A DNA stretch of 62,916 nucleotides, counting the filler, from Sluysia triapertura (lineage: Eukaryota): assembly GCA_046118255.1 (NCBI GenBank). It is 4 parts of 4 records of this genome, joined end to end, with 100 filler letters (N's around TTAATTAATTAA, not from the genome) between each part and the next. Parts side by side here need not be neighbours in the genome. Positions count along the whole stretch, not along the records: positions 1 to 19,224 come from JBJNIA010087576.1; 3 more parts are not named here. One strand, written 5' to 3'. Positions 100 through 29,292 of this stretch are shown here, piece by piece. A program made the translations under genes and the position numbers. The first letter of the stretch is position 1, and each line of letters starts with the position of its first letter. Below the pieces are notes generated by a model. It worked only from the letters and a program-made list of their open reading frames with translations. It made no database searches and had not been told where the DNA came from.

Positions 100-715
100 C
101 GTGATGAAATGTGTTTGTTATTTTGATATAATTTCACTTCACATATGGTCGATATAGATAATCAATTAAAAAGATTAGAAGTAGCAAGATTACAGATTAA
201 ACCTACAAAATGTATTTGGGCCGAATTTTTAAGACATAGTCTCACAAGATAGTATAATACCTAATCCAAATAAGATAGAGAAAGTTGTAAAATATCCACA
301 ACTTGATAATGTAAAAAAGGTACAAAGTTTTTTGTGACTAGCCAATTATTAGGGGAGATGTTAAATGACTTTTTCAGAATAGCTCGGCAATTAAGGATAC
401 TAACACAAAAGAATAACATTTAAATAGACTGAAGAACAAACAAAAGCTTTTATGTAATTAAAAGAAAAGCTAACTGAAACACCAATTTTAATGTTTCCGG
501 ATATGAATAAACCGTTTATATAGTCACTAGTAATTTTGCAATAAGGGCAATATTGGGACAAAGAAATAAGGAAAGTTTAGAAGGAATAATAGCTAATGCT
601 AGTAGAAGATTAAATAAGGCGGAAATTAATCATTCAACTATAGAAAGGGAATGTCTATGCATGTAAATTATTTCGACACTATTTATTATGACAGAAAATA
701 TACTTATTTACATAA
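100..715 (+). mobile_element. Degenerate Ty3/Gypsy LTR-retrotransposon pol fragment (RT C-terminus plus RNase H)
   Basis: Manual translation across frameshifts and stops: HMVDIDNQLKRLEVARLQIKPTKC...IIPNPNKIEKVVKYPQLDNVKKVQSFL*LANY...TEEQTKAFM*LKEKLTETPILMFPDMNKPF...SNFAIRAILGQ...IIANASRRLNKAEINHSTIERECL. These are canonical Gypsy RT-thumb and RNase H motifs. Confidence 0.9.
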
Positions 716-3495
716 TCGTAGGGACGAAGTAAGTTGATTAAACCGATGATTTACCAAACCATCAGAATTATATCTACCAATATTGTACATTAACGAAAAA
801 GGAAATATACATTTTATACAAATTATGAACATATCAAGGAAAATTGAAGAACCAAAAGAAATAAACAAATATCAAAGACATGACAAAGAAATATCATATG
901 CTTTCGAAGCGATAACCAAATGATTACTGAATGAATATTAACCGACATAATATTACGTTTTAAAGACTCAAAAGAAAACAATAATACTTAAATCAGTGAT
1001 AACACCATTACTATTTCGTGATGGTCAACTAAGAGGACTTTATCTAAAATTAAAAATAAATGCTACTGAGATAACATGGAAGAAGATAATAAGAAATGAT
1101 GTAAGTATTGCGAAATTTGTTGTAGAAGGTTTACAAATCAAATATTCCCAAAAAATAAACATATAACCAATAAAATCCAGATAAGATTATCCATCTTATA
1201 AATCATTTCTATCACTAAAACTCTTACTCTTATTTACTACTACTACTACTACTCAATAGAAAATCCAAAAATTCTAATCATAAACACAATCATAGGAAAA
1301 TATCAACAAACTCCAAAATAAAATTTTAAACAAACTTCAGCGCAATCTAATACAAAATAACAATTCAAAAAAACATACATAAAAAACAAACACAAACTTT
1401 ATAATATTCTTCACTTAATAATAATATTTAATATTGTACCATTAACCTTTATTATTAAAACTATTGTTAGCATTATTGTTTGTGTGATGTTTATTTTTTA
1501 CACTTCATGCCAAGTGTGCATCTTAATGATATTTTTGAAACATTAGAAGATCAAGAAAAATTAGATTCTTTACTGTGCAAAAATTAACAAATTATACAAC
1601 ACTAAAAAATCTAAAGAACTAAATAAAATACCATTACCAAATTTATTTAAGAATTTATTCGATAAATTATTATTGGATGCATTTTGTCAATCCCAAAAAA
1701 CGTCAAAAACCCAAATAATTACATCCACCTAAGCATGCTTCAGAAATCCTCGGAATTGGCAGATTCAGTTGAATTCCTCACCAATGCAATCACGCACGTT
1801 ACACGTATACGTTTAGTAGAGAAACCATCTCGCCATAATATTAGTAAAGTGGAATTATTGCTTGATCTTTTACCAAGATTGATTAATTTGGGGCACGAGA
1901 AGTTAAGTCCTAATCAACAAATTAGAAGTAAATTAGAAGCGGAAATTTTCAGAGTAAATAATTACTCCTGCAATAAGAAACAATGGCAAGTTATGTCGAA
2001 AAATAAAATAACGAAAGTTGGCGAATTATAACGAATATAGATTGCTTGAAAAGTGTAAAACTACCGAAAAGAAACCTCATAAAAATATTAAGAGTGCAAG
2101 AAATCCTATGAAAGTAGTACTATAAAAGATCAGGATAAATTTACAAACTATGACGCAAGTTTTGACTTCCGTAGAAGCGAAAATACAATTTTGGAATTTC
2201 CTTCAATAAACAGTTCTAAATTTTTCATGAAAGTAAATTAGGTGTACCTTTAAATTATATTCACATTATTACCAGAATTGGGAGTTACATAATTCATGAT
2301 TTCCCATTAATTATTATAATAATTTATTAATCAGTTAGTTTTCCACTGTCAATAATTAAGTAGTCATGATTCTTAATAAATTTTAATTAAAAATTATTGA
2401 ATAGATAAATAAATTAATATATTTTGTGCTTATTATTTTTCACAAAGAAAATTTTGCATTATGTATATAATATAGCAAGTTTTCTTCGAATACTTTTAGA
2501 GTCTATTATCAGTTTTTGTAATATATTTTCAGCGTATTATAATAAATATAACCAGTTAATATTTTACAAAGAATTATTTTTTTCATTTTTATACCAATTC
2601 AATCTTCATGTTAATTTTTTTGCTTTAAAATTATGAAATTAGAATATTGTAATTATAATTAAATATAAATAAAGGAAAATATAGATTTATATAGTATTAT
2701 ATTTAAAAATTACCTTACGAAATATTAATGAATATTCATAGCGATCCAATTTCTACTTATTTTGTTTTATATGAAGAAAATAAGACTCTTTTTAATGAAA
2801 ATTATTTTGATCCAATGTTTGGTTTATAAAGTGATGAAATAAATACTTTTCAACTTAATTATAAAGCTAATTATTGTACTATAAACAAAATTTTCAAATA
2901 TTACCACGGAAAATGATAGTACGTTTTTATTTTTAATACTAAGCCACACTTTACAACTTAGATTAAATCATCATTCATCTTATTTACATTTTACGAAAGG
3001 TTTAGATTATGTTTTATTTTATTTTAATAATCTGATTACTGCATATCACAGTGGTTTAGAAATAAGAATTAGATGTATACATTCAAGCCAAACGATTTCT
3101 TCAAATATCAAAACGTAACATTGAACTGTTGAAATAAATATGTGTAAACAACCACTTCATGCTTGCTTATGTGTTTGTTTCATTTTACTATCATTGATTA
3201 TGTGTTGAAGTTATATTACTTGGGTAGAATAAAATAGATTCATCGCTGATCATTGACATAGATAATGAAAAATGTGCCTTGAAAGCAATATTGATAATTG
3301 AAAATCATATATTAAGTTTATTTCGTTTTATTGATAAATTGTTAAAAAGTGTTGAAATACTACTAAATTAGCTACTAATTGACATTCATTTTCAATTACA
3401 TCACCATCATCGTAATACATATTCATCATCATCAGGGCCATAATTATTACTATCATAATTAAACCATCATTAAACACACCAATTATCATCATCAC

Positions 3496-3651
3496 TGTTG
3501 GGTTACGGGCCTAAAGTGCATAGAATAATTGACTATAATAAAATTGTTAGACGGGGCTAATAGCTCAGTGGTTAGAGCATTGAACTGCACAGCTATGAAG
3601 CGAAAGGTGCCGTGTTCGATTCCCAGTCAGTCCATTTTATGAAGTCTAACA
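3496..3651 (+). mobile_element. ~160-bp TG...CA element containing a tRNA-Cys-like unit (copy 1)
   Basis: Starts TGTTGGG and ends GTCTAACA. Internal tRNA-like body at ~3554-3634 has box A TAGCTCAGTGG and box B GTTCGATTC, followed by TTTT. Homologous over its full length to 9607-9770 and 38371-38535. Flanks are TCAC/TTAC. Confidence 0.8.
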
Positions 3652-3739
3652 TTACTATCATCACAATATTATTCACATTATTATTATCCTCATTATTATT
3701 ATTATTATCTTTATCATCATAATAATCACTATCATAATT

Positions 3740-3808: not shown

Positions 3809-4213
3809 ATCACTAATACTATCATTATCATCATCACAATTAAAATCTCTTTCACTTGTGTCATCTTCGTAATCACTTCATGATTACAATCTCTATTACA
3901 ATCATCGTCATCATAACCGCCATCACAATTATTGCTCTCATCGTCATCGTCATCATCATTTTGAGTAGATTCACTGAAAGCCAATCAGTTTCAATTAACA
4001 TTCGAAATTATAAAACTATAAAAATTTTTTTACAATGTAAATGTTGCTTTTCATTTTAAATCTTGAATTAATGCATAAAATTATCTCTTAAAATTATTTT
4101 ATATTGAAATTGCTTTGCGCACTTTTATTTTTTTGAAGAAGATAAGTTCAAAATCTTTATCTTATGAGTTATATGATAGTTCTTTAAACCGGATTCCACT
4201 GGCATCTCTCTAG

Positions 4214-6850
4214 TGTCACAGCTGTATATCTCATTTTTTTACTCAGCACAACCCCAACATAAATACAAGCACAAATACAAACATAACTCACATTAACCTC
4301 ACTTATAACATTTCATTCACCTCATAACTTCACCATATTCCATTTAAGCTATAAAATATAGACAAGAGGATTACCAATATATATATAAATTCATCGTAAT
4401 CTCATACAATATATTTGCAAATCACAATCTTCTAACATCCAAAAGTTACTTTCAGTCAAAACATCAATGTATATTTAAAAATCCACATAAAACATATAAA
4501 ACATATATTAAGTCATAATTTTTCAACATTCAAACTTATGCTCATTTTCAACATTCAAACTTAAATAGCATTTAAAAATTCATTTAAAATACTTAAGCAT
4601 TATCATATAAGGTTAGAAGTACAAATACATCATAAAATTTCATTGCAAATACATAACAGTAATTGGTAACACCACAGGTTCACAAAATCGTAATACTTAA
4701 CCTTTTAGACATTTAACTACTTTAATGAAATAGATTCAAATATGTTAAGAAATAAAGAATATAAAAGAAACTCATGTTTCCTAGTAATTCAAAAGAATTT
4801 ATGCATTTTATGATAATAATAATAACATTCTTGTTATCATTATTATTATCACAATTTTTAATTTCCAAATATTTATTTTGGTAGCTACCACTATCAATGG
4901 ATATATTTTTAATTTATATGTACAGTATTGTCACCATTGATAGTGGCCTGTCTGTCAATTTTATTCATTTCAATGTTATTAATATTCGTCCAACCAGAGT
5001 GATCGTTTTCATTATTTTTATACAAGTGATATTGAAGATTATATTTTGTATTTTAGTTTGTAACTACTATTTCTGCTTTTGATAAGAAAAATAATATTTA
5101 TTATTGTATCCTAAGTGTTACTTATGAATTATACACTCAGTCAATTATAATATGAAAAGAACTGATTGACAATTATAATAGCAATTTGATCAACAAAATA
5201 ACTTTTTTTTAAAAAAAATTTACAAATAAATTAGATAACTGCTAATATTTTATTTACAAATCGAAAAAGCACAATTTTTGAGTCATTTATGATCACATCA
5301 TTAAAGACAACAGATTATCTAGATTTAATATTAGACAAGCGTTTCTTAAAACGAGTATCAACTGTAGATCAAATTCACAAACAATCAAACCTACAAATAT
5401 GGATATAATGATTTCTACAACTGAGTTGGAAATTACCACTCCACCAAATGAATGTATTTTATTAAATCCAAGTAACAATAATCAAGAACGTGATAGTCAT
5501 GAAAGACGGAAACGCTTATGCATTAGTATTCCAGAAAAAATTGATGAATTTCTCATTTATAATATTTATTTACATGTCCTTTATCCTAGGCTCGATGTTA
5601 ATGTTTCAAGAGAATTTACTAATCAAAATCTAGAGCAGATAATTATTCGCATAGATAGCTATGAAAATATGTTCAATGTAATTAGACGCGAAGTTTGTGA
5701 TTTGAGAACTCTCATCTCCAGTTTCAGCAATAAACCGAGATTAAGCATTGACAACTATATCAGTATATTCTCTCAATGTTATTCGATTTTAAAAGTGAAA
5801 AGATCAAATAAAAATTTAAAAAAGCATGCCTTTTATGAATTTACGAGGCCCATTAGTACAGAATTACTTGAAAACAATAAAGATAATTTGGGATGATTCA
5901 AAGGATGCTGAGTTTTCGAGTTGGAGGAGATATAATTAGTCATATTGATATCATTGCTCTGAATCAAAGTGTGAAGCTCGTACCAATAGTTGCTGGTATA
6001 GTTTATGGTTACTCTAGTCCATGTAAAAGAATTTTTATGACCGCTATACAAGTTAAAGAAAATAATGCATTGAATATAAAAATGATCAAATCTTTGAAGT
6101 CAATAACGATAAATGCAATTCTAAACTTAATTTCAAATAAAGCTTTACGAATTAACTTATCTCAGTTAAACACGAAGGACAAAGATGAATGTAAAAAAGA
6201 TTTGGAATACCATTATACTGATCCTCATAAACGACAACATTTTAACTATAGATTGGGGCCAATTCAATTCCACACAACTATTTCAATGATTTATCAAGTT
6301 CAAATCTATATCTTAGAACAGCACTTTGCCCATATACTAGCGACCAAAATGGCAAATGCACAAAATTTGGATTTAATTGTGTATATGTGCATTCGGTTAA
6401 TCAGTTGTTGGATCATCTCACAAAAATCATTTGTTTAGACTCACAAATTTGTTCGAAAGCATTGGCATACCTACTTTAGAAATATTCGACATTGGATCTA
6501 TGGATAATCATAGAGTAAATATTTTTTATGACACCAAAGATGATTTAATTTTGATTTTTCTAGATAATGAAACGTGGGCTTCCAAAATTGGCATATGCAG
6601 GACTAAAATTTTTATGTCTAAAAAATGATTCAATTTTTATGTCTTTACAATTTCTCATTTGTTATTTATAATTTCCAAATCTTTTCGTTTTCTTTAAAAT
6701 TATTAAAATTAAATTTAGAATTTAAAAATTGTATAAATCTAATAAAATCTTTTGAAAGAAGTAAATCAATAGCAATAGTAATTAATATAATAGTAATTAA
6801 TAGTAATAGTAATATTAATAGAAGTAAATTTTTAATATAAACAATTTCAA
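4214..6850 (+). mobile_element. Cargo-element family member (boundaries uncertain): A/C-rich leader, hairpin, intronless decayed ORF chain
   Basis: 4730-4810 matches the reverse complement of ~36535-36610 in another family member. Perfect 13-bp hairpin at 4888-4946, then CCAACCAGAG at ~4990, then a chain of ORFs 5289-6628. No TSD found. Confidence 0.6.
5289..6628 (+). pseudogene. Frameshifted intronless mosaic cargo ORF containing a DNA primase small subunit (PRIM1)-like fragment
   Basis: Overlapping ORFs 5399..5896, 5893..6438 and 6431..6628 in shifting frames. The segment DSHERRKRL...NIYLHVLYPRLDVNVSRE resembles the PRIM1 [YF]PRLD[VI]NVSK motif. The remainder is unrecognised. Confidence 0.55.
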
Positions 6851-7214
6851 AACATTACATAAGCAAATTTACGAAAACACACAACTATCAAGACGATTTC
6901 ATAATTTTTTTGTTTCTAATACGCCTTTTTATTTGTTAAGTTTTTTAATCGTTTAATGATTATTGTATAAAATCCACATAAATTATATTCATTTATTTTA
7001 AAACCTTATCTTTTAAATCGATAGGAAGTAAAAAATAATTTACTAAAATAATTGACTATAGGATTATCACGAATAATCCTGACAAAGTATAATTTTTTTT
7101 TCTCATATGATTATATATTCATTTAATTGTTATCCAGTATAAATTATTAATAAATCTTTAGCTCTTAATTTGTATTATTTAATAAGAAAAATATTTAAAA
7201 GATATCGAGTTTTT

Positions 7215-9606: not shown

Positions 9607-9770
9607 TGTTGGAGTATAGGCCTAAAGTGCTGTAAGATATTAATAATATAATTGACTATAATAAAATAAAATTGTTACAGGAGCTGATAGCTCAGTGGGT
9701 AGATCATCGAACTGCTCAGCGAAAGGACTCGGGTTCTATTCCCGGTCAGTCCATTTTATGAAGTCTAACA
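9607..9770 (+). mobile_element. tRNA-Cys-like TG...CA element (copy 2)
   Basis: TGTTGGAGTATAGGCCTAAAGTGC...GCTGATAGCTCAGTGG...GGGTTCTATTCCCGGTCAGTCCATTTTATGAAGTCTAACA; flanks AAAA/CAAA. Confidence 0.8.
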
Positions 9771-9791
9771 CAAATAGTCATGTAATAATAA

Positions 9792-9870
9792 TGTTAGACT
9801 TCATAAAATGGACTGACGGGAGATCAAACCCGGGATTTATTGCTGCGCAGTTAGATGAATTTTAAACATT
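9792..9870 (-). mobile_element. 5'-truncated tRNA-like element, inverted relative to copy 2
   Basis: TGTTAGACTTCATAAAATGGACTGAC is the exact reverse complement of the 3' end of copy 2. Confidence 0.8.
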
Positions 9871-10796: not shown

Positions 10797-11700
10797 TTAT
10801 TGAAACAATAAAACGTTTCTATAAAAATACATAACCGCAGTTAATAACAAAGGAATTACTGAAGCATGAGACACACTGTTATTACTTGTGGTTTCATAAT
10901 TTAACGAAAGGTATAATAATCGTTTTAAATTATATTTAAGAAAATTTGATTCCAATAACTCATCTAATATCGTTTTATTAATTTCTCTAGTTGACATTAA
11001 AATATCGTCAAGTGTTAATCCACGATTCAGTATTTTATGAACATGACGAAAATGAAATTGTCGACGTAACAAATAACCTATTAAATTGATGAAAGAAAAA
11101 TATTGATAAATAAACAATTGGAAACGACTTGTATAATCTAAATCATATTGGTTAAATGAAACTGAATGTTGTGGATAGTTTGAATAATTACCAATTTGTT
11201 CTGATTTATAATAACGTTTTAAAAATGCTGAACATGTAATTATTATTGTAACAGATAATAATCTAAATAAAAGGTTGATTATACTGTACCATGATGGTGA
11301 CGTTACTGTAAAGCAAAAAGTTCCAAATTCTCTAATTTTAGTCCAAATATTCAACATGATATCACATTTTGATCCCATATTTCATGGCATAATTAAGTCA
11401 AATACTGATGTTTTAATTATTTTTTGCCAAGACTATAAATTAATATTTATTCTTTATATTTATTTTTATAATTTCAGGTTTTGGTTGATGCAATCCGTGA
11501 TCCTGTTCTTTTAATATGTTTTGCAAATTTTGGTCTGAATGCTGTTAGTTCACCATTTATATACCTAAAATACTCCCTTTAGGCATTCTACAATACCAAT
11601 AACATCTTTTAAATGTCTAATATTTTTAAGCCATTTGAAAAATACTTAATTCTGTCATAATTGGATTCTATCTTTACAGATGCTATAGTCAATTAAACTC
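10797..11700 (-). pseudogene. Intronless decayed ORF of unknown family (193-aa open segment, hydrophobic C-terminus)
   Basis: ORF 10797..11378 plus upstream protein-like frames broken by stops; no recognisable domain. Confidence 0.35.
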
Positions 11701-11999
11701 AAATAGTGATCGTCAAAATAATTATCTGATTCAAATTTTGATTTACAATAAAATCTATATAAATATCACATTTATATAAAAAGTAGTTAAGGTAATAAGG
11801 CTGATACTACTATTTGAATCATTTGATTTGGGAGATGATAAATATCGATGCCGTTGTTTCTTTGGTATACTGGAATTCTCGCTATAATCCATTTAAGAAA
11901 TTGTTGTTCGTGCTGCTGGTGATAAGGAAAATGTTAATAATTGAACTATGGGGCCACAAGAATACCATTGATAAGTCAGAAAGAACAAAGAAGGATATT

Positions 12000-13079
12000 A
12001 AATCGCAATCATACCAATGATAAATCACAGACATACAATTAAGTGGATAAAATAAATAAATGAGAATGTATGAAAATAAAGAAGGGAAAAAATAAAAATA
12101 AAAGAATAGAAGAAAGAAATAACAACCATTAAATGCAAAATGAAAAGAAGGAAATGAAAATGAATATGTGAATATCAGTTGTTGAATAATATATTGATTA
12201 TTCCGCAAAAATCAAAAGATTAAAGATTAAAAGCCCCAAAGATAGAGGATAAACAAACGCATTAAAGTACCAAGATTAACAATATTATTTAATTGGGATA
12301 TTGGAGGGAATGGTCCTTGTAGATATTAAAAGAGAATTCAATGGAGAGTTTGATACACTGGCGTGCTAAACCAGTAATATCGGCCCTGTGGAAGCCTAGT
12401 TTTTTCAGAAGGATATCATTTTCAGGATCTCAAGATCCAAGTGCTCCAACGACAAATGTGTCAAGGGAAACCTGACATTTAAGTTGTACTTGGTGCTTTT
12501 CTCTCAGGTCGGAATATTTCGTAATATTGAAAGTTCGGGCCGCATTAAATTTCTCATAATCATCAATCGGCGACTTGACGTCAATGAGAAAAGGTTGAGA
12601 GGAATTGATACCTTCCGCTTGTAAATCAGGTCTTCGGTAGTCAGCAGTAAGGGGGTTTCACTTAGAAGCCCATTTGTTTAAGTTTACTAAACATTTAAGT
12701 TTAAGTAAACTTTCGAGAATCTTATTATGTCTGACTGTACGGCCCCTGATAGTTCGAAAGCAATGATATAATACGTGGGCAATTGTTTCCCGTTTAAAGC
12801 CACACCAGCGACATGTAATGAGGAGATGCAGCCGAATGTTTTGTGGAGAGAAATTAAGCTTAAGAATAGCCTTAATCATAAAAATCCAACTCTGGTTATT
12901 TAACTGTAAAGAAAACGGGCGACCAGATAGAGGACTTTTCAAGAAGCATTCGACAAAGCATTTTCAAATGTTGATATTGGAAATGTTAATCAGTTCATGA
13001 AGATATTTACCTACTTTCTCTTTATGAAACCGATTTAATATGACTTCGTTTTCACGAAGGATGTTGCATCTGATATTTA
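12000..13079 (-). mobile_element. NeSL/Utopia-type (R2 group) non-LTR retrotransposon 3' part: CCHC knuckle, RLE endonuclease and 3' UTR
   Basis: CRWCGFKRETIAHVLYHC...RHNKIL, then RRPDLQ...FLIDVKSPIDDYEKFNAARTFNITKYSDL...FVVGALGS*DPENDILL (PD..D..K restriction-like endonuclease). Confidence 0.9.
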
Positions 13080-15542
13080 TGCAGTAATAGTATGTTTAAG
13101 TTGTTATAATTTATAATGAATGATATATTAATGTTCTTTATTAATAAAGTTGATCAATTTTTATAAATAAATATTATTAAAAGATAAAAAGTACTATTAA
13201 ATTTACGTTTTACCAAAAAATTTATTACAAAGAATTTCTTATAATCTAAAAATACATAAAAATAAGAACTAGAACTAGTTATTTCGACTATTTTTAAGTA
13301 AAAAGCATATATTTTTGTATAAAGTTTATACATTTCCTGAATATGCCAAGAATTGTTTTCACTTGTTACTCTAAAGAAATACAAGTATAAAAATTGCTTT
13401 ACGTGAATCTTTTTGAGTAACTGGATCAAATGGAATTATTGCCAAACTCGATAAGATAGCACTTATTCGATGATAGTGTTAGTTGAAATCTGCTGCATAA
13501 CTGAGACTATCTTTGAATTCAAAGAATCTGTGACTATTGACACTTTTTACTATATTTCGAACATTCACCAGTTGATGTAGTTTCATATAAATAAATAGCA
13601 TGCTTGTAGCGTTTGTCTTCATTAAGATAAGATTTATATGGAAAGGTTTATTTCCAATATAAAAACACTTAAAATGGCAGGTTTTTGATTTGTAATTTGA
13701 ACAGTCTGCCCTGAAAGATGTTTATTTGTTTTTCATGACAAATGAATCAACATCTATCAATTCATAAGCCGTCAGAAATGCATTAGTAGGTAATTGTATA
13801 ACTTGGTCATCGATTGTTATAATTAATCTAGGAATACTTTTCTTTTAAAGAGCAAACATGATTTAAACTTGATAATATGACCTTATTATTACTTTTACTA
13901 ATCATAATGGATTCTTTACGCTGAAGTGCATGTAATCCTTCAGTCAATCTTCTTGTACTAATATTTTCTATGTTGGCTAATCTAACAGATTTCATTAATT
14001 TCTAAATTCGAAATGTTAATAACTTTTGGTAGTATTACATATAATTCATGAGACATAATAGTTGAAACTAAATTTTTGTTTGTAATTACTAGATAATTAT
14101 TCTGGTCTTTAAAATATTGTAATAAATCACGTCCATTTTTACATCTACCATCTTTTATTTGTTTACTGTAACCAGAATAAACGACACAATCGAATCTTTT
14201 TCACTAAAGTCGAATATCTTGTTTCTATAAACATATATGGATGACATATATAATGGAAAACTAAATGTTTTATTCATATAGATTGTTGGATTGCAGTTAT
14301 CATAATTATATCTTAAATCAACCGATTTATCTAATGTGAGCATAAAAAATTGTTTTTCGAATTATATTTGTGAATTAAAAAAATAACTTTTAATCGCTAG
14401 ATAATTTTAAATCAACACCTTTTTTATCACTGTGAGCAGTAAATTGTAATTGTCTTTTTTAGCTTTTATTTTGAGAGTTGTAAAAAATACGTTAATAGAT
14501 GTTTGTATAACTATACACCTGCAATTGTGAAGTGATTATAGAAGAAAAATTGCTTATGAATGGGCGTCCAATCAAATGAGAGAAAATATTATCCAAAAGT
14601 GGAATTGATTTGACGTCCAATTGGCAAAATTTTCACCCAGTAACTGTCATCAGTCGACAGTTAATACGACACACTGATTCAATTTAAATTAACTGTCGGT
14701 TGATGACAGATTAGAATAATTGGATTGCTACAACATTAATGATGACGACAATGGTAGTGTAATTAATATAATGAATAATTAGAATAAAATTACTAATAAA
14801 TAAAATTAATAATAACTACATAAATAAATCTTTCTTAAAATAACTTTGCCTTTACATGATCTTTCTTTATAAAACTCTTTTTCTAAACAAATAAAATTCT
14901 TTAAAATGCTTTATTATGTGAAAATAAAATTCTTTTAACTTAATGCCTTAAAATAAAATCATTTTACGTTGTTTTCTTACTAGATTATGTAAATACTCTA
15001 AAATTGTTTCAAAGTGTTGCTTTAATGTTTTACGGTGATATTAGACATTGAATGTTAAAGGATTGTAAGCTTGAAATGTTTTGGATTGATTTTAAGACCT
15101 ATATTTGATAGTTTAAGATGTAAAATATAATTCTGATGTTATGAAATTGTGAATTAAAATGTTTTGAATAAATTTTATTGTACGTTAATGGTTCTGAATG
15201 TTAGTAAAGTTTGGATATTGAAAGATTGTAAATTTAAAATATTTTGACGTATGAAAAATGATTTTAGTGGATCTGAAAGAAATAAAATATGAAAAGGTTT
15301 TGATAGAAAAATAGGTAAAATGTTATGCTTTTATGCGCGATATTTTAAATTAAATTTGGGATGTTTTGAATTAATTTTTTAAGTATATCTTTGATAAATT
15401 TCGATGTTGAGTATGATCTTGATGCTCTGAAATTTTATGTTTATAATGTTGGAAAGTATTAAGAATTATAAAATATTCTAAAGAATTATTTTGTTGTGTC
15501 ATGATGAAATAAAATTTTTAAAGTAATGGGTTGGCCACCACA
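13080..15542 (-). mobile_element. Gene-carrying non-autonomous element (type copy), 2463 bp, TG...CA ends, 5-bp TSD ATTTA
   Basis: ATTTA at 13075-13079 and 15543-15547. Ends are TGCAGTAATAG...GGTTGGCCACCACA. Removing it rejoins the NeSL frame as ...EDQIKLN|IRCNILRENE. Twin hairpins at 14562-14618 and 14644-14709; cargo ~13150-14343. Confidence 0.85.
13154..14343 (-). pseudogene. Decayed intronless cargo ORF, unknown family
   Basis: ATG at 14343 lies ~220 bp downstream of the twin hairpins. Protein-like frames with several stops run to ~13154. AATAAA on the minus strand ~57 nt before the element end. Confidence 0.45.
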
Positions 15543-17640
15543 ATTTAATTTTATTTGGTCCTCACAGTAAAAGAAGCTAGCAGAAATTCGGTATTTCCGG
15601 CGCAAATTGAGGACAGATTGTCGAATTTTGGTCCACAGTGTCAGAAGTCGTGAACGCTTATCGGTTTACTGTTATTCAGCTAAGATAGATCATCAAAAAT
15701 TTTCATGACTTTATTTAATCTATCATTGGCGACGCGAAGAATTTCATGCAATGCAAGGGTAAGAACAATGTTTGTTCAACTGTTAAATAGGCGGAAGGCG
15801 CAAATTATATTCTGGCACATATAGTCATCATAAGAAGAAATCAGGCTTAAACCGCCATGTTTTTTGTGGGCATAAAAGAAAGAATTGTTTAAATGGAAGC
15901 TTTTCAATCCTACGAAGCCTTTGAATATATAGTTTATTTTTTCGTCATATCCAACAGAATGGGGAAGGTTTTTGGATTGTCTAGCGTGAGGACTACTAAG
16001 GGTTTGGGAATTAATATTTAGATGGCTAAAGTGAAATGGAAGGCGCGATAGAATAAAGTTGCGAAACATAAGAAATTTGGCAGCAGTATTGGAAATACTA
16101 TTGAAAATACTATTGGAAATACTATTGAAAATACTATTGGAAATACTATTGGAAATACCAGCAGTTACCATATTATTGGAAAGAGAAACCAGACTATCGA
16201 AAAGAAGGGAGCAGGAGCACTTAACAATGACTTGATTATGCTTCTTAAGTTTGTGACGCTTAAGGCTACTGCAATCATTGGGATTAAGTTTGTGAGTAAT
16301 CCCACAGGAAGTACACCAAGCATTGGTGTACAGGTTCTGGGTATAAGGGATAGGACAGTGACTTTTTTCCCCGCATCACGAATGTCACTATTAAGGACGT
16401 TAGTGTGTTCAATGTGAGTCATGGTAAATTCTTTTCATGTCTTGATTGCTCCACATGTGCATTTTACTTTAAGATTACTCAAGATTGTTGTGAACTGGTG
16501 TTTAGTAGTAAAATGCCTACGGACTTCCTTGAAATCAGAGCGGTTCTTAATAGTAAGACCCTTCATATTTCAGTCAATTAGAGAGAATTTAATGTATCTC
16601 TTAGGAGAAATTATGATGTGAGCATTATCGTACAACTTATTGCAAGAAGTTAAAGAAATATAGATGGTATAATCATCAAGATCAGTACCATTTTCGATGG
16701 CTGAAGTAACAGAGGATTCAGAAGAGACAATGTTAGGAGTCGTGGAGATAGATTCATTGTGGAGACTAAGAATTTCATAGGTTTCAGAGGGTGCAAGAGA
16801 AATTGTTTGAGGCGGAATATTAATAGGATCAACAATGGTAGCGATAGGAGGACGTTCAGAGGTAGAAATAGTTGGATCGTTGTCAGTGGGCATTACAGGA
16901 GACCTGTCGTTCAAGATCGATGGATTAGCAGCAGTAGTAGTTACGTTATTAGAAGGGATTATAAGGGTACTGAAGTAGGAAGTAGCATTATTATTGACAT
17001 TAGGGTTAGGAATGGCTACCTCAGTGACGGCCGGAATTGCCACAGGAGTCTTAGAATATACTTCAGCACTAGAGAATGTAGGTAAGTCACTAATAGGAGG
17101 GATAAGTCGAGGTTCCATTGCATTCAATTTTATGCAGAAGAATGTATCCCCATCAATGGTAATTATCATATTACTGGTGGATAAACCCTTTGTTAAGTAG
17201 GCTATAGTTGAGGGTACCACCACAGCAGGGTTAATAATAGGAGCCAGTGTGACTTGTACCCAAATGGTTTTTTCCAGTCAATTTTTTGGAAAATAACTAT
17301 ACGTCCATTGTTTTTCCTATGTCCAGAGAATTTAGGATACGATATTTTAACAGTTGTAGTCTTCGGGGAAGCAGAATCCTTACTACTTATGTTATTAATA
17401 TGGTTAGAAGGCTTAGTTTCAGAAGTTGTCGCTTTGGTATTCCTGGGTACCCTTGGGATTAGGGAGTTAGCCGTCCGAGGTTCCGAGACTTTAATACTTG
17501 TCCATTTAGGAATCACGAGTTTGTTCAATGTTGGCACAGTCTTCGTGGGGGCAGTACTGATATGTTTAACAGTGTTGTGTTTATTGCTTTGTTTACTGAT
17601 ATCCATCTTTATCGAACGCTTTAAAAATCGCAGGGATTAC
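15543..17640 (-). mobile_element. NeSL/Utopia-type non-LTR element, 5' region fused to RT C-terminal/thumb region (internally deleted)
   Basis: S/T/P-rich N-terminal ORFs (17202..17606, 16570..17223) and a Cys/His-bearing segment (RRHFTTKH...KCTCGA...THIEH). Then FRNFILSRLPFHFSHLNINSQTLSSPHA...FFYAHKKHGGLSL, which matches the end of the RT fragment at 31878-32387. Collinear with 12000-13079. Confidence 0.8.
16087..16158. repeat. 6 x 12-bp tandem repeat TATTG(G/A)AAATAC
   Basis: Directly visible; sits at the NeSL internal-deletion junction. Confidence 0.9.
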
Positions 17641-17848
17641 ACAACATAAATGTTAAAACTTATGTAAACTTATTTTGTTTTGATGTTATTGCTGAAGAAA
17701 AAGATTCAATGAGTGTTATCCACAACTCAATTGAAACCAGCATTCCTATAGCAAGAAGTTCCGCACTAATTTGTCAATTAATACTGTTGTCGCTTTTTTC
17801 TGGATTGTTATTGTGATTTTATGTAAAATATCAGCTCTTTTTATAGTA

Positions 17849-18014
17849 TCCAAATAATTGTCAGATAGTCGGAAATTCAATTCAATTATTTTGCATGTCT
17901 ACTGCATATGTTATTTTCTTAGAATCGATCTTATGCCGACTCATTACTAAAATGGAATTTCAATATTAATTTCCAATGAATTTCCGACTATAGATTGCCT
18001 GACAATTATCTGGA
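17849..18014. mobile_element. MITE with ~30-bp terminal inverted repeats
   Basis: TCCAAATAATTGTCAG-ATAGTCGGAAATTCA versus TGAATTTCCGACTAT(8-bp indel)CTGACAATTATCTGGA. Confidence 0.6.
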
Positions 18015-19055
18015 GATAATGAGTTTTGTGAAGAACGAACCCATATCTCTTTAAAAGAATATAATCATAATTTTAATATCATAATTGGTATTATACAAAC
18101 AGATATAAAAATACATCATACTAATTTACTTATATTTATAATCTAGTATAAAACTTTTTTTAATAACAATACTTTATATCATACGCAACACGTTAACAGT
18201 ACGTCACACGTCAGTCCCAATAGCGCATACTGACTTGTTTCTTTACAAGCTTTAATTTGATATATACTTTATTAATGCTCGGACATTGGAACGTATTTAA
18301 TCTTTAATTTTAAATTACAAAATTAATTAAAATAACTAATTTTACGTTATTTGCGTTGATGTGCTTCGTAACACTTAATTACCAAAACTAATAATAAAAC
18401 TCAACATTATATACTAAATTTGATATCATTATATTATGAGCAAATATTTTTATTGAGTTATCAAATTAAATAATTATTAATTAAATTAATTAAAAAATGT
18501 ACTTTAACACTTCGACAAACAAAACCTCGAAAGGTTATTTCTTCGTATTTCTCATTATCTTATCTTGATTCAAGTACTTCTTAAACTTATCTTATCATTA
18601 CAAGTCCCCTATTTCCATTCCTCAATAACGTTTACCTTATCTGTCATCCTGAATCTTGAACCTTTATACCTACCTTTGCTTTTCACTAATCCCAACATAA
18701 ACTACTAAATAACTTTAGGACCTTAATAAAGCATTTAAACATAAAGTAAGATTAAGTCTAAAAATAGATTAATTAATTAAAATCTTAATTAATGGTATGT
18801 TAAATTTGAAACTATGTATGTATTTGTTTCAAAAAAGACCTTTCAATGAAAATTTGCAAGAAAAATGTTAATAGTGAGCAAAGTCAAATTTTAATTAATT
18901 CTTAATTATGAAATGTTGCACTTTTGTACATAGAATAATGAAAGTGTAATGATTTGATTATGAGATGGTTGATATGAAAAAGGAAATTATAGAAGTGAGT
19001 TTAAAATAACTGTAGAGTGGTTTGTTTGAGAATAAGAACCTTACATATATTCCAT

Positions 19056-19224
19056 TGTAGTGGCCAACTCCGTAACGCAAAATTTAAAATAACTCAATTA
19101 AAATAAAATTCATCACAATCACCCTCTGCAACTACAATCACCACACAAATCACCACACAAATCACCACACAAAATAACAATACCCACAACTACAATCTTA
19201 ACATCTCACCAAACTACATCCAAC
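19056..19224 (+). mobile_element. Terminus of the cargo-element family (TGTAGTGGCCAACTC) with a 12-bp tandem repeat, cut by a gap
   Basis: Same terminal motif as 15542, 24048, 29766 and 55905; about three copies of AATCACCACACA. Confidence 0.65.
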
Positions 19225-19324
19225 NNNNNNNNNNNNNNNNNNNNNNNNNNNNNNNNNNNNNNNNNNNNTTAATTAATTAANNNNNNNNNNNNNNNNNNNN
19301 NNNNNNNNNNNNNNNNNNNNNNNN
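19225..19324. other. Assembly gap with artificial TTAATTAATTAA linker (also 34988-35087 and 47147-47246); plain N gaps at 54958-55107 and 58430-58557
   Basis: Identical 44N + 12 bp + 44N layout at three sites. Confidence 0.95.
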
Positions 19325-21227
19325 TTTTATATGCTTATCCCACTATTACAGTTCATCATAATACCTTGTCTTAGTTCTTTAATAACGTTCAACTTATTCT
19401 GCTATCCTATGTTTTAACCCTTATATCAACCCTTATCCTTCACTAATCCCAACACGATTAATACCGATTTACAACATATTTTGAATAATCACACATTTGT
19501 GTGTTGAAGCATATATAAAAACAAAAGAAAATATTACAAATAAATTGTAATAAAATGATGATGATAATAATAATAAAAATAAAATCGCAATGTTACGTCT
19601 TTGTATTCAATAATAATAGCAAATTAATACCAGTTAATTTATTTAACTGAACCTCAATAATTAATTACTAAATTCAATATAAAATCATCACAAATTTCCC
19701 TTGGCCTATAATGTTATTTATTCCGCCCAAAGATTATAAGCTTTTAAAATAAAATAACAACAATTCAATAATTTAATGATTAAAAAATCAAATACAAATT
19801 ACTGTTATAAGCTTTTACTAAACAACAGTAAAATAATTAAAACTATAGCATTAATGATAATGTTTATAATAATATCAGAGATATGGCAGTCTAAGTGAAG
19901 GAACGCAAAAAACACTAATAATGTCAATCTGGTAAGTTAAATAATAATACTGCTTACTTATTTCCAAATAATCTTAACCAAACTTAATATCGGTTAAATA
20001 TTATATATATAAAGATAATAATTATCATTATATTTTCAACATAATCACCCAAAAAGGTAAAATCTATTAAAATTAACTTTCAGTTAAGTGTTTTCCCAAT
20101 GTCGGTATGATTGGGTGATTGTATGCTTGTGTTAAAAAAATTTAGAAATTTTTATTTTACACTCTCTTCATCCAATCAATACCCAGTCTCACAACCAAAC
20201 ACTCTCTCACACAAATCACCCAAACCTCTCTGAGAATCAAACCGACAATAACAACTTTGAAAATTACATGGTACAATCTGTCAAAATTTATTAAGTATAA
20301 AACATAGAAATCTGATTTATTATCAACCATCATTCAATCTATTTTTACTTAAATTACTTCTCACATTAAAATTACAATCAACACTATTGTTAACATACAT
20401 AAAGATAATGAATTTAATTTCACTTTTTATTATTTAATTAATTTTTGATTTTCACACCAAATTTTCTAATGAAAAATGTTAAAGGTTCTTATTCTCAAAC
20501 GAACCTCACTTATAGATTCTCCTCTTTCATAGCAATCATCTCATATTCCATTCATTACATTTGCATCACTATAAGTATAAAAAATTCAATATTCCATAAT
20601 TAAAAATCAACTAAAATTTGACTTTGCTCAATATATAAAGGATTTCCTTGCCTGAACTCGGTCAAACTATATCTTAATCGAAATGTCTTTTCAAAACAAA
20701 TACATACATAGTTTCAAATTCAACTTATCATGCCGCATTCAAAAGTTATTCACAAAAACGTACTTTTTCTTAATTAAGCTAATTAAGATTTTTAATTAAT
20801 TAATCTATTTTTAGACTGAATCTTATTCAATGTTTAAAGGTTTTATTGAGGTTTTAAAGTCTTTTAGTAGTTTATAAGGCATTCAAGAGGCTCTAAATGT
20901 TTTCACCTTCACCTCTCTGATTTTTTTCTTGTTCTTCAAGTTTATTATTGCCACTTTAAACTTATCTTTATTATGTTGAACAAAGATTTTATTTCTCCAA
21001 CATTTTGAAGATTTTATATACTTTATAATATTACTCGAATATCTTTGATGCTTATTAAGGTTCCCAGAATAGAGTCTTAGATGATTTCAAAATTAACAAG
21101 CTCAATGGTGTTCTAATACCTTCAAAGGTTTTTCAAGATCTCAACACCTTATTATATGGTCTTTGGAATGTCAAAGTATTCTTTTAGCTGTTAAAATTAC
21201 CATAAATGCTTTAATTTTACAACTATC

Positions 21228-24048
21228 TTTGGTAATGTTATGTTATAGTATATTAAATTAAAATGATACCAATTTAGTAGTTTTGTGTTAATTATCTTAG
21301 GCCGATATATTAATGTTTTAAAAGTTATTTTTAAATGATACAAATTTAACAATGTTTGTAAATAAATTATTGAATTTAGTTTAGAAGAACTTAATTGATT
21401 AATAAATCTTTTAATCTTGGCGTCAAATTTTATATAAACTTTATTCGTATTATTGATTCTAAATTCGATATAAATAATACATTTAAAACTTTTACATAAT
21501 TTGATCATGGTCAAGTTACAGAAATAAATTAACAAGACGTTAAGAAATATAAATTTTGTATTTAATATTAGGACAAAAAGTGTAAATTTTATTATTATAT
21601 CTCCACGTACATCATTTGGCCTTCCCCAAAAGTTATCATATTGTTAAGATACTGCACAGCTCGTGAATTCCGCGCCAGTATGTCTTGATATTGAAACCAC
21701 GAATAATCGGTGGAATTAATTTTATTAGAATGGACTTCTATATTATTTTTTAATAAATAAAATTCTAATTTTTGTTATATCATACTTTGACAATCTTAAC
21801 ATGCGCTCTGTAAAAATATTATACAATTCGCTAGTAGTGAAATGGTTGCTGTCTCTGATATTACTCTTACAATTAACCATACAAAGGTTTATACAATTAT
21901 TACTAAAACCATCAATATAATCAGTAATTTTATTCATTTTATCTTTTTTAAATCTTTTATAGACGATATTTCTTTTATAATTCAAAATATTTGATAAATC
22001 TAATAATTTAGGGTTATCTATGAGAATTCTATCAATTAAGGTAAACATAGTTTCAAAAATGATGCTATCGTTAACAGGATATATAAGGCAATTCATCACA
22101 TGATGAGCAAATTCTCTACGAACATTTATTTCATATTTAATATCTAATACAAATAGGATAAGTGATCACGAAATATTATTAATTTATTAATAAAAGCTGC
22201 AAAATAATTGAATGAAAATGTATCATGTAATCCAGCATTGTCTTGAGCTACAAATTTTAAATTGTCGTTACAATGAACAGTCGTAAAAATGTTAAATGAA
22301 ATAACCACATTCTCTTCATTACAGCTGTAGCGTTTCAAAAACTCGATTAAGATCATCATGAATTTATCAACATTATTCGTTTACTTTTTCTCTTTCAGCA
22401 TAATATCTAAACGTAATTGAAAATAGAAAAATATAATATAATTCATTAAAACATTAACTCCCAGTGGCGGAACTAATTCTTTAAAAAATAATAAACGCTT
22501 ACTATAAGTGTGCATTGAATTCGATGATTCTAAACTATAAATTTGAAATAAACTTTTTATCCATTCTAACAGTGGAACTAAGTAACCTGAATAGTGTACG
22601 CGAATTGGATCGATTCGGTCTGTAGACTCAAAGTTGAAACATTTCACTTTTACATATAAATTACTGATCATTAAACTAAATAATTTGTTGTTGTCACTTG
22701 ATACCGGAGACAACTTCATAAGGATATAAAATGTTTGACACATAGAATCATATAAAATTCCACGCAATTTATTAATTTCATTTACCTTTAACTTTATACG
22801 ATCATCATTATAAGTACTGTTGATTTGATAACAAATTTTATCAGTTGTAGATGAAATTTTGTACTGTATATTCATCCCTACACAAGGTACTTAGTGAGGC
22901 TGTGCAGAAATAATCTTGGACATGTCTACAAAAAACGAATTACGGATCCAATTTTCTGTATTAATTTCAAACGGACGAATAGATTGCACTTGAGTATACT
23001 TCATATCAATGTGATCTAATTTTTCTACTTTGTAAATTTTTATAATTGTGATTTTTGTTGGAATTATGAGATATTTTGTGAGACATAAATTCTTTTTCAA
23101 ATCACATTAATGATTGGTTATCCAACCAAATCGTGTATATGATGTCTAGACATACACGTTTTTGGTTTGATAATCAATATATAGTCGTTATTAAGTGATG
23201 ATTTAGCCAACTATTATGGCCGCCATCATCATCGGTGACAGTCAAATTTAAATGTTTTACGAAATGTCATCGATTCTAATGGCGGTGACAATATTGGTTG
23301 GAACTGGCATTTTTTATTTATTTAATAATTATTATTGTTGTTATTATTATTGAAATTATTATTGTTAATATCAATTTATTACAAATTAATTAAAGAACAC
23401 ATACATTCTTCCTGTCTTTACTTTTCTTTAAACTTCTAAACATATTTTGGATTGAAATAAAATAGAAAATGATAGAATTGAATGTAATAATAACAATAAT
23501 AGGATGAACAATTTTATCGTTATTGCTGTTATTACATTGCATAAGCTTTTGGATTCTTTAAAAACTGAACACGAACTTGCTATTTAATACCATAAATTTC
23601 TGAACATATTTAAACTAGAAATATTTAAGCAAAGATTGGTTTAAGTAGATGTGAAAGAGATAATTTATAGTCCACTCTTGGTATATTAGAAAGTTGATTG
23701 TACAGAATTGCTACTATGATTGTTTTCTTGCTGTTTTTAAGTGGTATTGTCTTTTGTGTTATTAGTTATTATCTGATAACAATTGATGAATTTAAGTTAT
23801 TGTAATTGATTCGAATGTGATTATTATTTGGTTATTATGAATGTGAAGTAGAATATTTTTGATGGATTTGTTACTGTAAATCGGTGGTATTGAATGTAAT
23901 TGTGATTTGTAAGTTGTGAAATTGTGGGTATGAATTGATTTTAGTAGATAAACTGTTTTGTGAGTAAAGTAAAGTAATGTGTGGATATTAATGTGTTGAA
24001 GAATTATTTTTGTATGAAATTTAATATTATTAAAGGTTGACCACCACA
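21228..24048 (-). mobile_element. Gene-carrying element, 2821 bp, 5-bp TSD CTATC
   Basis: CTATC at 21223-21227 and 24049-24053. Right end is GGTTGACCACCACA. Left end TTTGGTAATGTTATGTT resembles TGCAGTAATAGTATGTT at 13080. Hairpins at 23113-23178 and 23220-23285. Leader homologous to 36570-37360. Confidence 0.8.
21560..23100 (-). pseudogene. Decayed intronless cargo ORF chain, unknown family
   Basis: Consecutive minus-strand ORFs 22891..23100, 22381..22875, 22144..22359 and 21743..22099 start immediately after the hairpins. Confidence 0.5.
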
Positions 24049-24917
24049 CTATCATTTCAACGCTGCCTACAACGCTCAATTCATCACTTGGTATCAGTTC
24101 TTTCTTCATTTTATAGTTCCTCAGGCATTTTCTGATGAAATAATAACAATATGAATAATTATAATTTATATTTATTTCAATAAGATCTTCTGACTGCTGT
24201 CTGTTGGACTTGAGAAACACAGAAAAGTACGATATAATTTGTCAGCAAAGTAAATTGAGTGCTAACTGATTTCAAAGAAAATAAAAGACATATTTTAAGA
24301 TAATTTGCAGGAGTAGTAATGTTATGGAAAGTCATTTCACCTTGTTTAATTTAGATTGGATTTTTAAATATATCAATTTGGAATGCGTAATTTTTCGATT
24401 CGGACTCACTACGGACACAATAAATTCAAAATGTGGTTCTGCATGTTTTATCATTAAAGCATATTCATTTGAAACTCGATAAAAATTGTAAAGAAATTAA
24501 TTAAACTTGCATTATTATCCGCCTTGTTAATGTAGGGTTTTTCGATGAATTAAATAAAGTATGAGAAAATAATTAAATTAATTAAATTAAATAATTAAAT
24601 TAAATAAATTAAACTAAAAAATAAAAATATCGTTTAAAAAATTTAAAAATTAGACAATCTATGTGTCATTTCCATATAACAAGAATGTAAACTGCGAAAC
24701 CACAAACAACGATCAAACTACCATCCATAAGGGAACAGTAAACTCTTCCATAATCATTACACCGAGCACAAGAAAAATCACTGTCGTGCCATGTCTGTAA
24801 ATACGTTATTTGCCATTGATATAAATCATTAATGATCGATTGAATTATGTATTTTCAATGTTTTATTCAATAATTACTAAATGTGTTAATTACTGAATTC
24901 TCACTTAATTGATCGTG

Positions 24918-24981
24918 CTTCATTGATGCTCCTTCATCGATCCTCCTTCATTGATCCTCCTTCATTGATGCTCCTTCATCG
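24918..24981. repeat. ~4.5 x 14-bp tandem repeat CTTCAT(T/C)GAT(G/C)CTC
   Basis: Directly visible, immediately upstream of the CCAAT-type hairpin at 25005-25066. Confidence 0.85.
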
Positions 24982-25274
24982 TTTTATTCTATACTAACAC
25001 TTTTACTGGCTGGCCAACAAAAATTTTTAGTACTTCCTCAATGCCTGTTTTGATTGGTCGACCAGTCACACTGCACAGTTAACATCTAATCCAGCAAGGT
25101 AAAAATAAATAACTAATATAGACTAGTCTCAATTAAGAACACGGCAGCAAAAAATATCGAATAAAAATATAATTTTTATTGAATTTTATTAGAATAAATT
25201 TTTTAAAATATTTTTTCTTGGTCATAAAAATTATCAAAGCTTTCATAAATTGTACAATATTAAATAATTAGTAG

Positions 25275-25560
25275 ATGTCTGATGACACTGACACATAATA
25301 CTATGAAACAGGAGATGATTATTATTTTGACGATGATTATAAAGCCGATGAACCTAAAACAGATACTTCATGAAGAACTACAAACTGCCAATGTGGAAAT
25401 AATGTTAAATAAAGTTACAGATGAATTGGCAAATAGAATTAATGTTTCTTTTATTATCGCTAAAATGCTACTTATACAATATAAATCGTCATTAAATAAA
25501 ATTAGTCTCGATATATCTAATAATCCGTACAACGTTTTGTTTAAAGCTCGCATATTATCT
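25275..25560 (+). pseudogene. Ariadne-2 (ARIH2-like RBR E3 ligase) N-terminal fragment
   Basis: Acidic start MSDDTDT*YYETGDDYYFDDD, then after a frameshift LQTANVEIMLNKVTDELANRINVSFIIAKMLLIQYKSSLNKISLDISNNPYNVLFKARIL. This resembles the ARIH2 UBA-like region (L..VS...AK..L....W.........N....L..AR). Confidence 0.65.
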
Positions 25561-25689
25561 AATGATATCAAAGTTCTTTATAAATGTCAAAAAATGCAAA
25601 ATAACATTATATGGCCTTCTTATGCATCATGTTTCGAAAAGATCAATAACAGTTTGGAATTATTGTCTACGAACAACATGGGTAAATTA

Positions 25690-26110
25690 AAATCGTTAAA
25701 ATCACTTCAGCTTCGACAACGTGCTACACCAATTGCTATCAGACATAAAGATATCATTGGTTTATCTGAAACCTGAAGTGCGTAAACTTATAACAACCAA
25801 CCTCTGACGTACATAAAGATTTTGATTCCTACAATTGAATTGAGAAAGTTGCGTGTAGTAAATTGATGGAGAAAAGTAAAAGATTAAATCTAATAATAAT
25901 TCGTTAACTGAAGATACAGATATAACTGATTAATTTACAGTATTTAGAATTTTTCATGCCGACATTGTTGTAGCAACTTCTAGTCGAATTTTAATTATGC
26001 CTCATCACACTAATCAGATTAAAGAAATTTTTTATTCCATTCAATATTTAGTAAATTATGATGTAGATAAAATGTTAAGTTCTCAATTATTTTAAGACAT
26101 GGTGAAAGAT
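25690..26110 (+). pseudogene. DEAD-box RNA helicase N-terminal RecA-domain fragment
   Basis: RQRATPIAIRHKDIIGLSET*SA*T (Q-motif plus Walker A), ILIPTIELRK (Ia), ADIVVATSSRIL (Ib) and QYLVNYDVDKMLS (motif II), in the correct order and without introns. Confidence 0.8.
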
Positions 26111-29100: not shown

Positions 29101-29142
29101 ATTGGAGTGGTTGCTTTCTTTGAATTGATGATCCATAGTATT

Positions 29143-29292
29143 TCATTTATTATCAGTCAATTTTCTTCTTGTTTTTTCTCTTTCGTATTGAAGAATTAAT
29201 TCTGTTTTATCCTTCTTCAACATTTCTGACTTTTCTACTAATTAGTCTCTATTAGTATACAACTTGTCAATTATTTCCGTCGAATGTTTCAT
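29143..29292 (-). pseudogene. JIP3/JIP4 (UNC-16/Sunday driver) RH1-domain fragment
   Basis: MKHSTEIIDKLYTNRD*LVEKSEMLKKDKTELILQYEREKTRRKLTDNK; L..QYEREK..RK is the JIP3/4 RH1 signature. Confidence 0.65.

Follow-up and report, generated by a model that had tools for sequence, protein, structure and literature searches.

The 2463-bp unit considered here (E1, positions 13080-15542) is inserted in a non-LTR retrotransposon of Sluysia triapertura, within a stretch of 62,916 nucleotides that was analysed as a whole and is called the window below. With 26% GC, gaps, long-intron genes and many repeats, the whole window has the character of animal-type DNA. Matches to Omp85, Kelch/BTB and PDZ mark the long-intron genes; a homologue search with the Omp85 exon gave no match. 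The gaps at 19225-19324, 34988-35087 and 47147-47246 each consist of 44 N, a 12-letter linker with stops in all frames and another 44 N; they are artefacts, and truncate three of the units described below (E2, E7 and E47). Contigs of a public run (X1) cover 47% of the sampled words of positions 11500-18000. Since this run may be the window's own source, it is not an independent sample; it is useful for other copies of repeats, and contig depths summed from it are no copy numbers. The features of E1 and its surroundings are the following.

12300-13074 (-): C-terminal part of the host non-LTR retrotransposon, downstream flank (zf-RVT, E 0.04)
13075-13079 (+): left target-site duplication (TSD) ATTTA, from the sequence and the empty site
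13080-15542 (+, the presumed sense): E1, the whole unit, a one-step insertion according to the empty site and a putative solo LTR
13080-13101 (+): weakly conserved end, putative att end of U3, with TG followed by a 10-mer at 13092
13137-13142 (-): AATAAA that likely serves the cargo gene as its poly(A) signal; that strand has nine AATAAA
13157-14343 (-): decayed cargo gene with stops, frameshifts and a residual coding signal
13537-13602 (-): probable degenerate CCCH zinc finger, kin of the fingers of E0 and E25
14560-14725 (no strand): promoter-like module with CCAAT boxes on both strands and a TGTCA hairpin, related in E0, E3, E6, E7 and E25
14740-14830 (+): AT-rich tract with CATAAA (14819), putative TATA-like zone
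14854-14892 (+): pyrimidine-rich conserved core TTCT.AACA.AT, putative start of R
14952-14957 (+): AATAAA, putative LTR poly(A) signal, 591 nt from the conserved end
14990-15542 (+): G/T-rich, C-poor tract, putative U5 and the "leader" of the original prediction; contig depth is highest here, and the conserved family end closes the tract
15543-15547 (+): right TSD ATTTA, from the sequence and the empty site
15548-17640 (-): upstream flank of the host retrotransposon, by homology to a second copy
about 31880-34900 (-): this second copy, a decayed non-LTR retrotransposon that retains pieces of RT and Ulp1, homologous to the host of E1

E1 moved in as a single, one-step insertion. Eight X1 contigs represent the empty site and link 13074 to 15543, skipping 2468 bases, with five letters that fit both sides, while the filled junction is spanned by one contig (13045-13652, one difference). 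This bears out the proposal that E1 is an insertion, and the proposed unit itself was found as described, with TG...CA ends (TGTGG...CTGCA on the minus strand) and an exact ATTTA duplication on either side. The duplication by itself is weak evidence, since a CA with an exact 5-mer is also found 0.8-4 kb from 486 of 1500 random TG sites in the window, and chance would give 0.76 matches of this kind for the duplication of E1; it is the empty site with its 5-nt overlap that proves the insertion. Excision with one copy of the duplication does bring the flanking retrotransposon frame back into register, as was claimed, with about 40 stop-free codons on either side of E1, but that frame is decayed. 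The host is presumably a NeSL element, a name that rests on the link of this clade to Ulp1. Frames with BTB/Kelch similarity on the plus strand overlap the second non-LTR retrotransposon at 31880-34900.

Several classes of mobile DNA can be set aside for E1. Helitrons and DIRS elements are not known to make a TSD, and both are ruled out by the 5-nt duplication at the empty site. A non-LTR retrocopy or SINE was rejected as well, as a poly(A) or simple-repeat tail is absent at both ends and the TSD measures 5 bp. An Rfam search over the window gave six matches, the tRNA-like ones in a SINE-like repeat and the others low-score noise; since none falls within E1, a hammerhead or retrozyme reading does not apply. 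The tRNA-like, SINE-type repeat occurs in three copies (3491-3658, 9607-9857 and 38366-38592), with AAT-rich tails adjoining. Neither a terminal inverted repeat (TIR) nor a terminal direct repeat was detected in E1 at 40, 100 or 300 nt (z at most 1.0), and Pfam gave no match in the three cargo-strand frames, hence no transposase or integrase, in agreement with the absence of an LTR pair, a long TIR and such enzymes in the original prediction. A DDE_1 transposase fragment at 41715-41933 (-; E 3e-6), of pogo/mariner type by family, showed no tie to the ends of the E1 units.

TG...CA ends with a fixed TSD are the footprint of retroviral-type integrases, with 3-6 bp for LTR elements and 4-5 bp for Ginger2 as given in PMC10045372. 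Such a footprint had been proposed for E1, and the empty site with its 5-nt duplication, together with the TG...CA ends, supports it; from this footprint we infer that E1 was integrated by an integrase. The integrase of a parent element was not seen. TG...CA ends with a fixed TSD of 4-6 bp, by which a solo LTR is recognised, are present in E1. Its two ends differ in character: the far end, TGCAG, fits the TGTTRNR consensus poorly, and of the first seven positions of short inverted att ends (about 7 bp) E1 matches four and E5 six. Exact matches to the 10-mer at 13092 number two in the window: one lies 12 nt inward of the far end of E1 and the other 16 nt inward of that of E6. None of the six loose ends listed, from a total of 2336 in X1, lies at an E1 terminus.

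The end motif TGTRGTGRYCMA, although derived from the very copies counted, has seven exact matches in the window against 0.06 expected, a number reached by none of 100 shuffles. Together with an eighth, degenerate conserved end at 52374 this supports the proposed multi-copy family of termini, with at least eight ends in the window. Two of the eight ends run into gaps and one is interrupted. Three further units are devoid of the conserved end and have inner motifs in common with the others. Besides E1 the units are as listed here, preceded by a repeat (X) into which some of them are inserted.

17640-19055, 20110-21170, 27114-27637, 29535-29740, 48490-50010 and 50704-51889 (both orientations): repeat X
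4200-6900, approximate (-): E0, which has the G/T tract, the module, the core and a CCCH cargo; neither end was located
19056-19224 (-): E2, conserved end inserted in repeat X, meets a gap
21200-24048 (+): E3, which has the conserved end, the core and a long, decayed cargo; no far end was located
24670-27073, approximate (-): E25, which has the module, a CCCH cargo and, at 27073, a candidate far end
27638-29534 (+): E4, inside repeat X, NAP-like cargo, without a clean far end
29766-31046 (-): E5, candidate complete copy with decayed cargo on the plus strand and an exact TSD, CACCA
35088-37356 (+): E7, which pairs most closely with E3 (about 70-72%) and has lost its end, with a gap-cut orphan frame
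35088-35996 (-): this orphan frame of E7, 303 codons without a stop, the least decayed cargo
47247-47617 (+): E47, conserved end, meets a gap
51890-52374 (+): E8, degenerate conserved end, broken by repeat X
52399-55905 (+): E6, candidate complete copy across a gap, with TSD CTAAC/CTGAT (three of five letters) and a CSRNP_N piece

Together the 11 units amount to about 20.4 kb or 32% of the window, with bounds that are partly approximate. In the five copies tested for a TSD it was exact in E1 and E5, and three of five letters agreed in E6, the far end of which is backed by the 10-mer held in common with E1; a clean far end was found for neither E3 nor E4, and when the flanks of E4 are placed on a homologous copy of repeat X they overlap by about 5 nt. 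This repeat is non-coding and AT-rich, with a summed depth in X1 of 214,000-616,000 versus about 20 for single contigs, and is the target of E2, of E4 and of one insertion seen in X1, where one contig carries the conserved end at another site in repeat X. Some neighbourhoods deserve mention. The conserved end of E8 and the far end of E6 lie 24 nt apart in the same orientation (52374-52399), and E4 and E5 face one another with 231 nt between them. A repeat of 130 bp is common to 24533-24664 (+) and 37361-37483 (-), where the conserved end or G/T tract of E25 and E7 is gone; it is either a separate element or an alternative end. Pattern scans outside the window gave five metagenome and two viral loci, all seven without the skewed tract, and were taken as chance.

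The cargo gene of E1 is a pseudogene with a real residual coding signal. It had been taken for an intronless ORF, but the longest ATG frame measures 62 aa and stop-free pieces are spread over all three frames; for the same reason, "type copy" overstates what E1 is. On the cargo strand the break cost is 8, versus 17.5 in resampled sequence (z -4.2), with z +1.5 for the other strand, +0.3 for the leader and about 0 for an intron and repeat X. No Pfam or homologue match was obtained for this cargo. Its sole weak PDB match, picornavirus VP3 at E 0.024, was judged to be chance, and a MATH-like reading made by eye is without Pfam or PDB support. The CCCH finger of E1 is probably common to E0 and E25, judging from its pairwise z of 8.2, second among the best 12 pairs of 103 segments, and from its rank as top non-training match in six frames (iE 0.08); the ligands are lost and one frameshift and one stop lie inside it.

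Residual coding signal is significant in the cargo of E0, E1, E3, E5, E6, E7 and E25 (z -3.6 to -7.5) and weak in that of E4 (z -2.0). Domain matches, the only level at which a host origin of the cargo appears, comprise zf-CCCH_UNK in E0 and E25, above the Pfam cut-off, CSRNP_N in E6 just below it (E 7e-6) and NAP in E4 below it (E 0.001), whereas E3, E5 and E7 carry orphans. A homologue search with the CCCH piece of E25 gave no match, and MIF4G-like and Ariadne-N-like readings made by eye, for E5 and E25 respectively, are without Pfam or PDB support. The DNA near the cargo ends of E3 and E7 is held in common, their proteins are not significantly similar (BLASTP E 0.12), and a domain that may be common to E0, E3 and the frame at 1666-2028 is weak (z 3.2-6.6). 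The comparison thus supports cargo that varies between copies and modules that are partly common: the variability claimed at the outset holds for the NAP-like, CSRNP-like and orphan cargo, but not for the CCCH finger that is probably common to E0, E1 and E25.

The orphan frames, which are rich in N, I, K and Y, could also be taken for gene-sized pieces of an integrated DNA virus or Polinton-like element, a very improbable origin in our opinion. In its favour, the E7 frame has one weak feature match (0.85) to a mostly NCLDV cluster. On the other hand, no credible homologue of the frame is present among 1.84 billion representatives, where the one match, a bacterial LTD-repeat protein, is a repeat-sum artefact; there is no phage match, the two viral-contig pattern matches are without the skewed tract, and Polintons have AG..TC ends and a 6-bp TSD, unlike E1. 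An ADP-ribosyltransferase-like identity of the E7 frame, from language-model matches to ART clusters in the Atlas (0.85, low recognition), is a weak lead; single-sequence fold prediction was useless (pLDDT 32), and for the E6 frame the Atlas gave no result.

For understanding what kind of element carries this cargo, the order of features is informative. On the plus strand E1 reads TG, antisense cargo, CCAAT/hairpin module, AT-rich tract, pyrimidine core, AATAAA, about 570 nt of G/T-rich sequence and CCACCACA. Animal Metaviridae and retroviral LTRs are described as having short TG..CA ends, an AT-rich TATA-like stretch, AATAAA, a GT-rich stretch and a poorly conserved U3 (PMC3601003), and the order in E1 agrees with that account. 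An AT-rich zone, AATAAA and a GT-rich stretch follow in this order on one strand in E1, E3, E4 and E6, and in these four of four copies AATAAA lies 591, 593, 605 and 594 nt, respectively, from the conserved end (p 0.002). This spacing, scored where the end is intact and 790 nt of sequence are available, was looked for after the idea had arisen and is one of six motif/strand tests, the other five not being significant; it could be due to chance, since there is hardly any alignment between the G/T tracts of separate copies (z at most 5.4 for 44 of the 45 pairs, and 24 for E3/E7). E5 has no AATAAA within 325 nt of the plus-equivalent strand, and its G/T tract is short; in E0 and E7 the signal is absent from the aligned position. 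Counted over the final 300 nt, TG/GT dinucleotides number 37-85 on the plus-equivalent strand and 4-26 on the opposite one in nine of nine units. The core motif TTCT.AACA.AT, picked after the alignment had been viewed, has four occurrences in the window, all of them within E0, E1, E3 and E7 and on the same strand. Of the two hairpins that had been noted, one (14644-14709) is strong (z -6.2) and the second weak (z -2.1).

The original polarity is therefore probably reversed, as far as can be judged from these motifs: what was called an A/C-rich leader reads on the plus strand as a G/T-rich U5 behind AATAAA, which would put the cargo antisense in U3 instead of between the promoter and poly(A) signal of the LTR. 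A solo LTR on the minus strand, with the leader as U3 and the cargo in a very long R/U5, is rather improbable. Module, frame and an AATAAA 62 nt before CA do stand in the correct order on that strand, the conserved end fits TGTNR, and Burro-like elements are reported to have upstream accessory ORFs (PMC6431247). No G/T-rich tract follows the minus-strand AATAAA, however, AATAAA on the A/C strand shows no positional agreement between copies (p 0.42), and U3 would be the most shared part and U5 the least, opposite to the description in PMC3601003.

Contig depth in X1 divides E1 into two parts. Summed depth is 12,050-13,860 over 14996-15523 and 133-1,513 over 13148-14995 (single contigs 14-23), and the step from about 12,000 to 447 across 14996 lies directly behind AATAAA. 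The far end is thus about 100-fold lower than the conserved end (133 versus about 13,000). This contrast within a single AT-rich unit, although no copy number, suggests that many relatives have the G/T tract in common and few the cargo. The bin with the putative TATA/R core is low (447), though R would be expected to be as conserved as U5. The sharp step near 14990-15030, a TGT at 14988 and the weak conservation of far ends would also suit a composite, in which a high-copy TG...CA element of about 550 bp took adjoining DNA with an ordinary gene along in a one-ended or aberrant integration. We consider this quite improbable, as the module and the core, which lie on the inner side of the step, are common to four to six copies with different cargo and so belong to the element, and as E1 and E6 have the 10-mer of the far end in common.

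A further possibility is a Pack-type, non-autonomous DNA element with short asymmetric ends, moved in trans by a Ginger2/TDD-like transposase. TDD-4/5 have TGTNR ends and a 5-bp TSD according to PMC2836005, gene fragments are carried by GingerRoot (PMC6839031), the candidate far end of E25 resembles, by eye, an inverted conserved end, and no internal region of an LTR element was seen beside any copy. Still, we regard such an element as unlikely. Ginger1/2 have TIRs of 40-297 bp, which are absent from E1 and E5; depth within E1 is lowest at the subterminal far end, whereas deletion derivatives should retain both ends; and AATAAA and the G/T tract are left unexplained. Of the two options originally offered, a solo LTR fits better than a Pack-type DNA element in the absence of a TIR and in the depth contrast, although its polarity is probably the other way round.

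With somewhat better than even confidence, E1 is a solo LTR of Gypsy or Bel/Pao type, with the plus strand as sense and a decayed antisense gene in U3. Gypsy-type elements do exist in this genome, as a decayed Gypsy-type pol with RT_RNaseH and Integrase_H2C2 (Pfam) is present at 200-1140 (+). On its 3' side lie a C-rich tract (1200-1500) and the frame at 1666-2028, which weakly resembles the cargo of E3; an end resembling that of E1 occurs beyond it, at 3043, its kinship to the family being doubtful. A two-LTR parent would have been reverse-transcribed and integrated by its own integrase, and recombination between its LTRs would then have left the solo LTR. The CCAAT/TGTCA module may act as a bidirectional promoter, driving transcription through R into U5 on the plus strand and through the cargo to its AATAAA on the minus strand; LTRs, solo LTRs included, are described as bidirectional promoters in PMC10186651. 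Both LTRs receive a copy of U3, so that the cargo would survive collapse to a solo LTR; antisense cargo alone would persist, as the element RNA would be shortened by any poly(A) signal lying in sense orientation within U3. Subfamilies with a common U5 and different U3 could arise by template switches in R. We infer reverse transcription, recombination, promoter activity and antisense selection from the anatomy of E1 and from LTR biology (PMC10186651, PMC7264820). No two-LTR element, primer binding site (PBS) or polypurine tract (PPT) tied to the family was found in the window; none of the eight conserved ends has a clear polypurine tract outside it, TGG follows the end in E5 only, where it coincides with the TSD, and a PBS scan of the window gave dozens of chance CA-TGG sites. 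E1 appears to behave like a gene-bearing LTR, for which Gypsy and Bel/Pao are candidate memberships.

The E1 family is real, multi-copy and unusual, and probably represents a variation on a known type of element rather than a new class. Solo LTRs are normally regarded as non-coding promoter relics. If the units are solo LTRs, each insertion brings a whole transcription unit that outlasts loss of the element interior. The family would then act as a natural double-copy vector that disperses gene copies together with their promoters, by which genes could be duplicated and domains shuffled on a massive scale in an animal genome. It is conceivable, if doubtful, that a hyper-abundant clade of retroelements uses U3 as an exchangeable antisense-gene cassette that is joined to a shared U5 at the first strand transfer; in that case thousands of self-promotered gene copies, each U3 having a different gene with host-like regulatory domains (CCCH, NAP, CSRNP), would be scattered over the genome as solo LTRs and make up about a third of the window. 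Since the units cover 32% of the window, such a genome would mislead gene annotation as well as LTR finders. If the units are instead TIR-less DNA elements moved by an integrase, they would form a new class of cargo transposon.

Genes located within U3, and hence duplicated to both LTRs, are familiar from MMTV sag, lentiviral nef and double-copy retroviral vectors. The cargo of E1 resembles them in position, but sag and nef are sense genes, single and fixed per virus. Integrase-type ends are also found in Ginger1, Ginger2/TDD, IS3EU/GingerRoot and Pack-TIRs, all of which have TIRs, unlike E1. Ginger1 has a TIR of 40-270 bp and a 4-bp CCGG/CCGT TSD, neither of which E1 has. Ginger2/TDD have TIRs of 45-297 bp, which E1 lacks, as well as TGTNR ends and a 4- or 5-bp TSD, with which the conserved end and the TSD of E1 agree (TDD shares the 5 bp) and its far end, TGCAG, does not. 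IS3EU/GingerRoot and Polintons have TIRs, a 6-bp TSD and TA..TA or AG..TC ends, mostly TA in GingerRoot, and none of these is seen in E1; GingerRoot and Pack-TIRs do carry gene fragments, the latter being mostly hAT and TcMariner elements (PMC8277862).

Among LTR-based systems, the retrocopies of Tan 2016 (PMC5131818) likewise are host sequences captured by LTR machinery and remobilised non-autonomously; as described there, the cargo lies between both LTRs with retrotransposon sequence on either side of it, whereas E1 has no terminal direct repeat. The planarian giant Gypsy elements Burro and GYPSM1 (PMC6431247) also gather host-like regulatory domains and accessory ORFs, a likeness by description, but these sit in the polyprotein or in an upstream accessory ORF. 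In the literature searched, no description of variable antisense genes inside invertebrate LTRs came up; supplements and Repbase may already contain ORF-bearing LTRs. Solo LTRs of Metaviridae (Ty3/Gypsy) and Bel/Pao elements resemble E1 in their TG...CA ends and a TSD in the range of 3-6 bp (PMC10045372), and in the order of AT-rich tract, AATAAA, GT-rich stretch and variable U3 according to PMC3601003; unlike these, the units of the E1 family hold a gene of 1-2 kb with its own poly(A) signal, and a U5 of about 570 nt. Antisense genes as such are reported for the plant LTR elements Grande, RIRE2 and Retand and for HTLV-1 (HBZ) and HIV (asp), with their own or an LTR-borne reverse promoter and often with orphan proteins (PMC7264820, PMC10186651). 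The ORF of the plant elements is situated between pol and the 3' LTR and would therefore be lost from a solo LTR, whereas in E1 the gene is located inside the TSD-bounded unit and varies between copies.
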